DNA of 64,000 nt, taken from the NCBI RefSeq assembly GCF_055900595.2, contig NZ_CM148325.1; one strand, written 5' to 3'. Made by a program: the position numbers. Below, one piece after another: positions 37,801 through 43,800 of the stretch. The stretch's first letter is position 1; every line of letters begins with the position of its first letter.

Positions 37801-40800
37801 CGCTCACTACGCGCGAAGTGGCTGAAACTATCAGCAACGGCGAAGCCGGATGCTTTATGCACGGGCCAACCTTTATGGGCAATCCGCTGGCCTGCGCGGC
37901 AGCAAACGCCAGCCTGGCCATTATCGAATCTGGCGACTGGCAGCAGCAGGTAGCGACTATTGAAGCACAACTGCGCGAGCAACTGGCTCCTGCCCGTGAC
38001 GCCGAAATGGTTGCCGATGTGCGCGTGCTGGGAGCGATTGGCGTGGTCGAAACCACTCGTCCGGTGAATATGGCTGCGCTGCAAAAATTCTTTGTCGAAC
38101 AGGGTGTCTGGATCCGACCTTTTGGCAAGCTGATTTACCTGATGCCACCCTATATCATTCACCCGCAACAGTTGCAGCGCCTGACCGCAGCGGTTAATTG
38201 CGCGGTGCAGGATGAAACATTTTTTTGCCAATAACGAGCAGTCAGCGTGAGGTTTTCTGGCTACACTTTCTGCAAACAAGAAAGGAGGGTTCATGAAACT
38301 CATTAGTAATGATCTGCGCGATGGCGATAAGCTGCCGCATCGCCATGTCTTTAACGGCATGGGTTACGATGGCGATAATATTTCGCCGCATCTGGCATGG
38401 GATGATGTTCCTGCGGGAACCAAAAGTTTTGTCGTCACCTGCTACGACCCGGATGCGCCAACTGGCTCTGGCTGGTGGCACTGGGTAGTTGTTAACTTAC
38501 CCGCTGATACCCGCGTATTACCGCAAGGGTTTGGCTCTGGTCTGGTAGCAATGCCAGACGGCGTTTTGCAGACGCGAACTGACTTTGGTAAAACCGGGTA
38601 CGATGGCGCAGCGCCGCCGAAGGGCGAAACTCATCGCTACATTTTTACCGTTCACGCGCTGGATGTAGAACGTATTGATGTCGATGAAGGTGCCAGTGGC
38701 GCGATGGTCGGGTTTAACGTCCATTTCCACTCTCTGGCAAGCGCCTCGATTACTGCGATGTTTAGTTAATTGCTCAACCAGATGGCGCAATGCTATCTGG
38801 TATCACTTAAAGGTATTAAAAACAACTTTTTGTCTTTTTACCTTCCCGTTTCGCTCAAGTTAGTATAAAAAAGCTGAACGTGAAACATTAAAAGCCATTA
38901 ATATCAATGCATTACAATATTTTTAGTCTAAAAAATAGACTACATAATGCTACAAAACACAACATACCCAGTCACTATGAATCAACCACTTAGATGGTAT
39001 TAGTGACCTGTAACAGAGCATTAGCGCAAGGTGACTTTTTGTCTTCTTGCGCTAATTTTTTGTCAAACACATTACGTCGTTTGCTGAATTTACAACCATG
39101 CTCAGTATCTCGATAAGCGCAGAGAAATGATGCAGTGGTGGGCGGATTGGCTTGATGAAAAGGTGTAGCAACCAACATTGCTATATCTCAGATAGCACAA
39201 AGCCTTGCAATCCAGTGCAAAGCTTTGTGTGTCTCAGTTTTGTCTCATCGGTAATTATGTGTTCGCTACGATGCAAGAATCCATACCAATAAGCATCCGA
39301 TAATTGGGAAAGAAAAATCCAACAAACTTCCCACATCCCACACGCGTGGATCAAAACCTCCCCACCACGGCATGTTGACACGTTTCCCTTTCCCAAACTT
39401 TTCTATCCAGCGATATTCTGCCTGGGTGTGTTCACGCGCAATGAAGAACGTACAACCGGCTATCGCACCGTAAGCCCAGTTTCCGGTAAAAATACCAACC
39501 AGTACCTGAGCCGCAAAAGCGCAAAGCGAGTGAAGAAATGGAGTGACATCAATGCTCTTAATCATGAAACTTCCCCATTGGTTGAAAATATGGCTCCTCC
39601 AACTCCAAGTGTATTTCGTGTTGTGCTCAACCTAAGAGGGCTGGAGTCAGAATTAGAATATCCTGTAGCAGAAATAAAAGATCCTCCACTAATAGTCAAC
39701 TGCGGAACATCGGCTATATCTGAATAAGTTCTGTCAGCAACAGTATTATTTATAGCCACATGTGATCCAAAAAAACTTCTTATTGTTTGGTTTTTAACTT
39801 TACTTCCTTCAATGGTTATCCTACTACCACAGTCAGCAATAAATCCTGAATCTGCATCCAGCGTTGCATTCATAAAAGAAGCTTCAGATCTCTCTACATC
39901 AATCCATCTAATATCTTTTGTGGGATTTGCACCAAATACATGACAAATATTAGAGTTAAACCTTACACCATCTTGGAGGTGCATTAATTTTTTTATATCT
40001 GTACCCCATAGCCTTGGAAAATTAACAGATGCTCCTGCATGGCAATCAAATCCCAGCTCAACCCCTGAGATATCTACAGCCTTTCCGGAAATAACAGCAC
40101 CAGTGTCTGCATTAACGGCTGTTCCACAATTGCGCATATCATTACCAGCAACATCAACACAACCCGCACCATCAATACGCACACCAAGTGCACATCCATA
40201 AAAACCTTTTTCAATATTTGGTTCAAGGACTTTACCACTTGTTTCTGCATCACTTTCTTCAACGTCATGTCGTCTTGCATCAACATATGCTGTATGAATG
40301 CACGTTAATCCACGATATGAGCAATGTATAGTTTTATGGTCGCGTATATTAACATTTGAACCATCTCTTACATTCCATCCTATATAACAATAGCTTGCAC
40401 TTGACCCCTGAAAATCTGCTTTAACATTATAAATACAATTAACTGACGCAACCGTACTCTCTGTGCACCGTTCAAACTTACTTACAGGCATTGATGCCTT
40501 GACATTATTTACCAGTTGCAGGGAAGAGTATCTGCTATAAGAAAAATCACATACGTAATACCCTTCTGGCATATATGCAGCAACACTTTCCTCATCAGGA
40601 GCACATCCGGTATGATATGCACTAATTTTTGCACCAAAACTACCATGAATTCCAACGTAGAACTTTCGAGCACCTGAATACGGATAGAAATTAAGTTCAG
40701 CTTTTTGAGTTACAATAAATGCACAAACATCGCTATCATCTCTATTTTCTTCAATCTGAATAGCAAATACAGGACTTTTTGCTGCATCGCAAATGTAAAA

Positions 40801-43800
40801 TAAATATTTGTATTCGTAATACGTCCTAACAGTTTTAGTAAACAAACTGGTATCAGAGAAAACCACTGAGTCTTCTGATATTATTTTAATCCATGATAAG
40901 TCACATCCTGCTGAAATTTCTATTTGCTCATTGAGCACAAAACCGGAAAGAATTTTAATTATGCAAAAATCAATGCCATTTTTCCATAGTGGACGCAGTG
41001 CAACAGCTGAGTTTAGAGCATCACTAATAGATTTAAAATTACCATATTCCCCAACTGTTATTGTGAATGCATACCTGGAATTAAATACTGCGGCACTCTC
41101 TCCAGAGTTAATAGCTGCAGATATCATGTCATAATTTGATATAAAATCATTTGGCGTGATTATTTCTGCGTTTTTATTGTGCTGTGTTCTAAGTTTTGAA
41201 TTTACATGAACACTTTTAACTGCAATACGGGAGTCGTCAACAAGTATTTCATTACCCTCTGTTGCTAACTCTTGTCTTAACTGATCCGGGTCATACTTCA
41301 GCACATTCGGAAAATAGAACTGCTGCACACCGTACGCATCATAAACAGCCATAGAATGGCCCTGTACAGTAACGAATTTGGCAATCTGTCCGTTATATAC
41401 CGGATATCCAGCAGCGTTAATGATGATTGGTTGCGAAACAGGAACGTGAGATCCATCTTCGTTCTCTACATAAACCTGAATCTGGTTTTCAGGATTTACA
41501 GGGGCAGTATCAATTTTACCGATATAAATTTTGCCATTGGCTACGGCTTTAAAAGAACGCGCCATAGTGAAGAGTTGCGAAGGCATACTCACTACAACAT
41601 TGGCTGTAATGTCTGTCATTTAATTTGCTCCAGATACAAGGAATCGCCGCAGCATTGCCACAGTGATGCATTATTAATCAAACAAAGAGACCACTGTGGT
41701 CTTATTGAGGATGCAACCAGCAGATAATAAGATGCCGATCCACTCACAAAAGCGAGGCATCAAGAATGGGAAGAGATGACCCGCAATTTAATCTGCGGCT
41801 ACCTTACGAATTAAAGGAAAAACTAAAACAGCGAGCCAAATCCAATGGCCGCTCTCTTAATTCAGAATTAGTTCAGATAGTGACTGATGCTGTATCAAAG
41901 CCATCCAAAATTTCAGGCTATCGAGACGATGCGGAACGCATCGCTGATGAGCAGTCAGAGCTTGTTAAGAAGATGGTGTTTGATACGCTGAAGGATTTGT
42001 ACAAAAACCCACCTGATGGTGGGTTCCATTTATTAGTCTTGCTTTGTGGACGGTATAAGGGATGCATTTGCCTCTTTAGGCTTCAAGGTATACATCCCAC
42101 CATTAAATGGATCTACAGCAAGCCAACCAATTAACCCACCAAACACAAGGTTTCCACCAATATACCAACCATTAGCATTGGCTTTGATTGGCAGGGTAAC
42201 TGGTTCGTACCCATCCTTCTCCATAGTGATCTGGTAGCTCTTTTTGCCAAAATAACTACCATCTGACTTGGCAAGAGTTACTCCTTGCGGGGTCTTACCT
42301 TGCGCAACAATCACGCCTGATTCGTCTTTTACCTTAAAGCTCGCACCGGAAGGATTGCTGTTCACTTGCACAAGCTGTGTTTCGTCACCAACAATAGTTG
42401 CGCACCCAGATAACATGATAACGCCAGCAACGACGCCAATAATCCTCTTCATATCAATTTCCATATTTAAAAAACCGGAAACATCCTAATGACAAACCAT
42501 TCAAATGTGAAGTAGGCAAAAGATGTTTACTTTTTTCATGGTATCCTGCTCAAAACTAAGGAGGTTGGCGTGAAGCAATTTCTTACTGCTATGTTCTTAT
42601 TCATATCTTTTGGGGCTACAGCAGAGTGCTGGGTCGTTGGAGATATGCGCGGAATAAGCTATTCAGAACGAAATAATTTCCATCCGGAAGAAGATGGTTT
42701 TAGTGGAACATTCATCATTAAGACAAACGGTGAAGATGCCAGCATCACATATTCTGGGACAGATGCGGGCGGCATGGCTTACAAAGCATTGTCTAAAAAC
42801 TCCATCATAGGAATCGGCGCGAATGGCGAAACTCAACGCGTTATCGACTCATGGGTAATACATCCTACTGGAACAGTTTTAATGTCAAAAACCATTTCCG
42901 GTTATGGAAATATGGATTCAACCAAAGCTTTTGTTGGAAAAGTAAAAAGAAAATGTTAGCGATTGAATCCAATTTCCCATACGTTACTGCTGTGTTGCCT
43001 CAGTAGCAAACAGCGGTCTGATGGCATTCGCAGCGTTATTTATCGCTCTTTCATAGGCTGGTGTTCCTGCTTTGGTGTTTGCCAAACGAAGAAGCATATT
43101 CCTTGCTGCTTTGGACTCATACAAGCGCATCATTGCACCAAAACCAGCCTCAATCCCCATTGATACGCCAAGGGTCGCAGTTGCGCCAATCGTCCTTATC
43201 CTGTTGGCTTGCGATTGCCCCGTCTGAGTTACTACATTTGCGGTGTCTGACCTTGCTGTTTGCTGTAGAACTTCATGAAGAGCATCAAGCTCTTTCATGT
43301 GCTTTCCAGAAAAAATAGTGTTGTAAATTTCACCGCCTGACTGAGATTTCAGCTTATTAACTTCAGTGATGAACTTGGCTGGAGAGTCCCCGGCCTTTTC
43401 CGCTATTTTGCTGACGTAAGCTGCACGCATAGCATCTTTCCCCTTATCATCCAGTGCGCTCCAGATTCGTTTCACGTCAGATGGTTTTCTGCTTAATACA
43501 ACGGTATTTATAAGTTCAGGACTGGCTTCACTGCTTGCCTTGTTGAGCTTGTTGGCAATGTTTTTATTAAGCACCTTATTATAAACGTTTGCATAATCGG
43601 AATTTGCTTTAAGGTATTTTGCTGCGTCTGATGCACCGAGGTTTTTAGCAACTGCGTTACGAAGGTCTTTTGACATTGCATTCTCTACCATATTGGTAGC
43701 TGCTTTTGCCTGGTTGGGGAAGACCATAGCATCTCCCTGAACATTAGATCTAAATGCTGTTCTGTGCTGACGCAAGAGATCAAACGTAACATCCAAATCA

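Follow-up and report, generated by a model that had tools for sequence, protein, structure and literature searches.

The 64,000-nucleotide window analyzed here (contig NZ_CM148325.1 of NCBI RefSeq assembly GCF_055900595.2) contains a prophage tailspike gene (39562–41619, minus strand) that begins like the tailspike of phage P22 and continues differently, which raises the question of where the second part of the protein came from and what it recognizes. The original prediction, made from the sequence alone, was of a chimera between a P22-type head-binding domain and a horizontally swapped receptor-binding or depolymerase module. The analysis bears this out, and we hold it very probable that the gene encodes a functional tailspike of a P22-like (Lederbergvirus-type) prophage at the lambda attachment (att) site, in which a conserved anchor is joined to a recently imported β-helix module. 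The tailspike is a real but ordinary mosaic, and the whole protein is already present in GenBank (phages HZ41 and JEP4).

The gene is a single long ATG-started open reading frame (ORF) of 685 amino acids (aa), with exactly the limits first proposed (stop codon included). Residues 1–113 match the Pfam family Head_binding (PF09008) over model positions 1–113 of 113, with an E-value of 3.5e-65. In a PDB sequence search, P22 gp9 chains (666–667 residues) align to residues 1–116 only, and Sf6 gp14 aligns to residues 1–160 (E 1.4e-68). The N-terminal domain had been described as near-identical in pattern to that of P22 gp9, which is fair at 76% identity, although identity is higher to Sf6 gp14 (92%) and to CUS-3, HK620, and vB_EcoP-720R6 (95–97%); judged by these identities, the domain is closest to the E. 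coli/Shigella subgroup.

The remainder of the protein is of a different character, as anticipated. Nothing in Pfam or NCBIfam matched the tailspike body (approximately 540 aa), and sequence searches against solved structures, with the single protein and with the family profile, matched only N-terminal anchors and the linker; the family profile found no P22 body. The segment encoding aa 116–685 is markedly AT-rich (GC content 0.371; GC content at third codon positions, GC3, 0.216) compared with that encoding aa 1–115 (0.426 and 0.40, respectively); the GC content is 0.47 for the flanking prophage genes and 0.56 for host bioA. The C-terminal part also has the Cys-rich, Ser/Gly/Asn/Val-rich composition that had been noted, with 17 Cys residues (3.0%), all after residue 218, and with Ser at 10.7%, Ala at 8.6%, Ile at 8.1%, Val at 7.9%, Gly at 7.7%, and Asn at 6.3%. 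These domain, base-composition and amino acid features are far beyond chance. Over its full length (residues 1–685, profile positions 37–729) the protein matches phrog_5662 of PHROG (tail fiber protein; E 0, 1267 bits).

The two parentages of the gene are seen at the DNA level. A P22-like prophage with a different receptor module (Ecol_881) shares 95.2% DNA identity from upstream of the gene to 41262 (approximately codon 119), and identity to it returns at the tailspike stop codon (39552; 89.6%) and runs on through the small downstream ORF. Identity to the tail-fibre gene of 92CQ, a 130-kb phage, begins at 41191 (approximately codon 143) and extends at 99.0% to 39549, 13 bases beyond the stop codon. 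The 729-aa tail protein of the 118UI type, found in 118UI and in eight further genomes, has 97.9% DNA identity from 40934 through the stop codon into the small ORF, to 39307. Between the P22-like and 92CQ alignments, 70 bases (41192–41261) belong to neither. In an alignment of five tail proteins with different anchors, the consensus RTQHxKNAE sits where similarity switches partner, with the R of RTQH and the K of KNAE invariant; the motif is kept across tail proteins with different anchors and bodies, and this conservation points to it as a natural short-homology crossover site.

The distribution of the module is consistent with the horizontal exchange originally proposed. At the protein level the module is 97% identical in 92CQ, 89% in HEMP4, and 47% in the Vectrevirus VEc3, where it is carried by one of two tail-fibre genes. 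Homologs of the body are found behind at least four other types of N-terminus: PF18668 (TSP1/gp66 type), PF12571 (tail-collar fibre type, one of these in Aeromonas media), PF03906 (T7 tail-fibre type), and no recognized anchor; three homologs (P0006, P0008, and P0018) share the P22-type PF09008 anchor, and SGNH esterase domains are added in P0013 and P0018. The family is small and rare, with 15, 43, and 199 members among 1.84 billion representative proteins at E ≤ 1e-30, 1e-10, and 1e-3, respectively. The remote relatives are phage receptor proteins from both Gram-negative and Gram-positive hosts, some of which have Pfam Beta_helix matches, one GDPD, and one BppL_N. Among 5,426 complete E. coli genomes, module DNA was found in 15: six P22-type fusions (two of these records being the same genome) and nine of the 118UI type. 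In FORC_082 the fusion lies in a prophage at attLambda with a full ant–arc–mnt region, and in PCP07083 the same spike and small ORF belong to a P22-like prophage that carries IntS and lies at the argW tRNA gene; thus, the cassette has travelled between phage backbones and between host types. The chromosomes of EC332, MS 198-1, and GPEC1186 each contain, at another place, a second and separate match to the module DNA, which suggests that each holds a second prophage with a related module.

Regarding the direction of transfer, the GC3 of the module (0.22) equals that of neighboring genes in 92CQ (0.22–0.27; GC content of the 92CQ locus 0.37) and is out of place next to the head-binding domain (0.40) and when compared with the neighbors of the 118UI prophage copy (0.39–0.58). 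Together with the 99% DNA identity to 92CQ, this makes a recent virulent-to-temperate import the simplest reading; the module was most likely acquired by temperate phages from a low-GC virulent lineage like 92CQ.

To examine the fold, 24 homologs were gathered and aligned, and the structure of residues 115–685 was predicted using AlphaFold (mean pLDDT 93, pTM 0.88). The model has a short helical cap, a long series of short β strands, and a small C-terminal β domain, and all strong matches in a fold search were right-handed β-helices, including the O-antigen-specific tailspikes of Sf6, HK620, CBA120 (TSP1–4), and Det7, with Vag8 and pertactin among the top matches. The model therefore assigns the receptor module to the pectin-lyase-like right-handed parallel β-helix class, in keeping with the β-helix body that had been suggested. 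The family profile also matched gp15 of the Staphylococcus epidermidis phage Andhra (probability 91.5%, E 8.7e-7, 352 columns), with the motifs ITSE and CDFSY in common, so the resemblance probably reflects remote homology.

In the tailspike as we picture it, residues 1–113 would fold into the conserved trimeric dome by which the spike is plugged into the tail hub, and after a short linker, residues ~144–685 would form a β-helix that recognizes an E. coli surface polysaccharide and probably cleaves or modifies it. The upstream crossover would have occurred at the short conserved motif where the helix starts, and the downstream boundary of the cassette would be the tailspike stop codon, flanked by the conserved gene for a small membrane protein. 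That near-identical proteins are encoded by the isolated phages HZ41 and JEP4, and that JEP4 lyses a large number of E. coli isolates (PMC8425383), counts in favor of a functional phage protein. For enzymatic activity, we draw on a set of polar residues (E231/Q232, D240, W243, D250, D358, R418–D419, R426, H442, and R449) kept in 79–100% of relatives of 25–30% identity; their conservation supports an active site, and the module is probably an enzyme. Several points weigh against this account. The conserved polar residues matched no nameable catalytic signature of known glycoside hydrolase or lyase families, and several of them are absent from Andhra gp15, for which no activity has been demonstrated (PMC9710869). 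As for the recent import from a virulent lineage, base composition is the single line of evidence for its direction.

The identity of the target glycan was approached through the O-antigen loci of genomes that carry the module. The galF–gnd clusters were located in EC332, FORC_082, PCP07083, and 118UI, and wzx/wzy regions were searched across the 5,426 genomes. The clusters of the four carriers all differ, so that no serogroup can be assigned from them: EC332, which is identical to the window across the tailspike region, has an unnamed rfbBDAC–wzx–glf–wzy cluster (rhamnose/galactofuranose type), FORC_082 is O5, PCP07083 is O7, and 118UI is O15. The EC332-type cluster occurs in 18 genomes, and EC332 is the one module carrier among them; likewise, the module is carried by 1 of 35 O5 genomes (FORC_082). 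In FORC_082 the O5 antigen operon has an IS1 element (1842762–1843459) at its head, separating galF from rfbB; this insertion might abolish O-antigen expression, leaving the host effectively rough. JEP4 lysed 32 of 67 antimicrobial-resistant E. coli isolates (28 of 38 in phylogroup A, 1 of 13 in B1, and 0 of 4 in B2), in a study that named no receptor (PMC8425383); a literature search on HZ41, HEMP4, 92CQ, and VEc3 found no receptor data, and no paper on HZ41.

A tentative reading of these data, to which we give a little under an even chance, is that the module binds or degrades a glycan common to several O serogroups, such as a group 2/3 capsule, the lipopolysaccharide (LPS) outer core, enterobacterial common antigen, colanic acid, or another exopolysaccharide. 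The carriers differ in O type, the same spike in different P22-like prophages at attLambda and argW implies spread among diverse hosts, the JEP4 host range follows phylogroup and is not narrow, and the SGNH esterase domains of P0013 and P0018 recall enzymes that act on acetylated polymers. No particular glycan is singled out by direct evidence, however, and the colanic-acid (wca) genes on the flank of the O locus in three carriers make a group 1 capsule unlikely. Moreover, spot-test host ranges can overstate productive infection, and prophages may predate a switch of O antigen.

The alternative preferred at the outset, a classical O-antigen endoglycosidase for one E. coli O serogroup, strikes us as unlikely though still a serious contender. 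It is the paradigm of the P22, Sf6, and HK620 tailspikes, recently restated (bioRxiv 10.64898/2026.05.19.726188), and O-antigen-specific tailspikes are among the fold neighbors of the module. A spike of this kind would need its lysogens to belong to one serogroup; the four carriers differ, which makes such an enzyme less likely than it would be by default, and the rarity of the module within the EC332-type and O5 genomes and the lysis by JEP4, whose spike is 97.4% identical, of nearly half of a diverse set of isolates also argue against it. The O-type results leave room for a more widely shared glycan and prove neither reading, given that spot tests overstate host range, that prophages can predate O-antigen switches, and that the O antigen of FORC_082 may be silenced.

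It is improbable, in our estimation, that the β-helix is a binding-only adhesin devoid of enzymatic activity. The Pfam and NCBIfam scans gave no known catalytic signature, Vag8 and pertactin rank high in the fold search, and Andhra gp15, the nearest structural relative, has no shown activity; yet the conserved Asp/Arg/His set is kept at 25–30% identity, beyond the needs of a fold scaffold, and the tailspike β-helices studied so far are mostly enzymes. More speculative, and in our view rather improbable, is the proposal that the module represents a new enzyme family of phage β-helix proteins that has a relative beyond the Gram divide in the Andhra receptor-binding protein and acts on a glycan common to many O serogroups; if true, this would account for the unusually broad host range of JEP4 and also for the occurrence of an identical spike in O5, O7, and other lysogens. 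Finally, the possibility that there is no chimera and that the C-terminal part is a fast-diverged P22 endorhamnosidase, with which it does share the overall β-helix fold class, can effectively be discarded, being refuted by the extent of the PDB alignment, by sharp breakpoints in the DNA, beyond which identity to an unrelated phage is 99%, and by the jump in GC3.

The tailspike gene occupies the same position as in P22, last in the late region and following the ejection-protein genes and an immI (Arc/Mnt) remnant (Table 1). On the left it is bordered by host genes (bioBFCD, bioA, and ybhB); on the right come the Arc/Mnt-like remnant, two small morons, and three genes for DNA-transfer (ejection) proteins, followed by the tail, head, and packaging genes. 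The 15-bp lambda att core was found once as an exact match (0 expected by chance), and by its position the prophage ends at the classical attLambda site next to ybhB, approximately 690 bp past the tailspike stop codon. The P22-like prophage thus seems to carry a lambda-type integration module. Near the att core, a long hairpin is followed by a T-run (ATTAGCGCAAG...CTTGCGCTAATTTTTT; 39004–39064), which we take to resemble the tI/sib region of lambda. In a scan for consensus promoters and terminators around the tailspike gene, promoter-like sites were fewer than in shuffled controls, and no terminator was convincing.

Table 1. Features of the tailspike gene and its flank in the 64,000-nucleotide window.
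Feature	Coordinates	Strand	Basis or remarks
Head-binding (particle-attachment) domain, P22-type, residues 1–113	41281..41619	-	Pfam PF09008, PDB matches, prophage DNA identity
Linker and recombination joint, residues 114–143	41191..41280	-	Ends in motif around 'VK...RTQHxKNAE'
AT-rich receptor-binding module, residues 144–685	39565..41190	-	Right-handed parallel β-helix (predicted) and small C-terminal β domain; phrog_5662
Tailspike stop codon	39562..39564	-	Overlaps ATG of next ORF (ATGA)
99-aa membrane-protein ORF, downstream flank of cassette	39266..39565	-	phrog_1443
Phage lambda attachment-site core GCTTTTTTATACTAA	38860..38874	-	Exact match at prophage/chromosome junction beside ybhB

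The 99-aa ORF that flanks the cassette had no match in the Pfam or NCBIfam scans; its PHROG match (E 9e-54) is to a family annotated as of unknown function, and the product is a predicted membrane protein. Copies next to another receptor module (in Ecol_881) and in a second prophage type (118UI) are 86–87% identical to it, and P22-like prophages, 118UI-type prophages, and HEMP4 all keep the ORF alongside differing tailspike or tail-fibre genes. Across phage records it is present in 67, lambdoid phages included (e.g., phage 21, at about 21.5 kb). The ORF may be a moron with an effect at the cell surface; for exchange of the cassette it provides the downstream homology arm.

The Arc/Mnt-like ORF (41766–42134, plus strand) has had its C-terminus swapped for unrelated sequence and is annotated as a pseudogene in EC332; the antirepressor gene is absent from this prophage, whereas the similar FORC_082 prophage retains ant, arc, and mnt. 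The immI region here appears to be decayed or deleted. The position taken by sieA in P22, flanked by the Mnt remnant and the last of the ejection-protein genes, here has two small ORFs (42033–42464, minus strand; 42570–42959, plus strand), with a lipoprotein signal in one (…LSGC; phrog_6823) and a signal peptide in the other (phrog_2651); they are possible genes for superinfection exclusion or another form of lysogenic conversion. Within the host DNA of the window, further markedly AT-rich blocks at 4001–8000 (GC content 0.33) and 24001–32000 (0.38–0.41, vs. 0.48 overall) contain long ORFs (e.g., 3955–5967, 6271–7956, and 28844–30496) and are likely to be horizontally acquired islands.

Because tailspike receptor modules set which bacteria a phage infects, the module is relevant to phage therapy and strain typing, and since JEP4, with its closely related spike, is already in a biocontrol cocktail, identification of the receptor would be of practical value. 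The locus provides a clean, datable case in which one receptor module has passed between a large virulent phage, temperate phages of the P22-like group, and other prophages, with crossovers placed at base resolution. The biology confirms a textbook pattern and reveals no new one; it would gain in importance should the target prove to be a glycan found across many serogroups.

That pattern, a conserved head-binding domain combined with interchangeable receptor modules, is the established architecture of P22-like tailspikes, whose defined substrates identify O-antigen rhamnosidase, glucosaminidase, and K1 sialidase activities. The tailspikes of P22 (gp9), Sf6 (gp14), HK620 (gp9), CUS-3 (endosialidase), and epsilon34 have the same PF09008 anchor (76–97% identity) in the same gene position after the ejection-protein genes; they share the β-helix fold class with the tailspike described here, and identity among them likewise collapses just past residue ~115, but the receptor module of the present tailspike has no detectable sequence similarity to theirs beyond the linker motif. 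Exchange of receptor modules between P22-like phages and both T7-like phages and Ackermannviridae has been reported (bioRxiv 10.64898/2026.05.19.726188).

The closest counterparts are HZ41 and JEP4, which encode the same full-length protein (99.6 and 97.4% identity, respectively), JEP4 together with an identical downstream 99-aa ORF; both are free phage isolates, in contrast to the prophage described here. In GenBank, the JEP4 protein is annotated as a tail spike protein, and the HZ41 record is without annotation. JEP4 (MT740315) has a 39-kb genome with a P22-type tailspike and was published as a member of Myoviridae from electron microscopy (PMC8425383), although a later study placed it with CUS-3 among P22-like podoviruses, so that published morphology and genome conflict. 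The 92CQ tail-fibre protein has the same module (97% protein and 99% DNA identity) on another N-terminal anchor and in another virion architecture (virulent, 130 kb), and there, unlike here, the base composition of the module matches the surrounding genome; the 118UI-type tail protein similarly combines the module (98% DNA identity over the last 455 codons) with another anchor and virion architecture. More distantly, Andhra gp15 (PDB 8EGR) has a β-helix body that is probably homologous, judged by the profile match, at 18–25% identity, and its anchor is a coiled-coil stem in place of the head-binding domain. It is a trimeric 19-layer β-helix resembling alginate lyases, from a phage of a Gram-positive host with wall teichoic acid as its receptor (PMC9710869).

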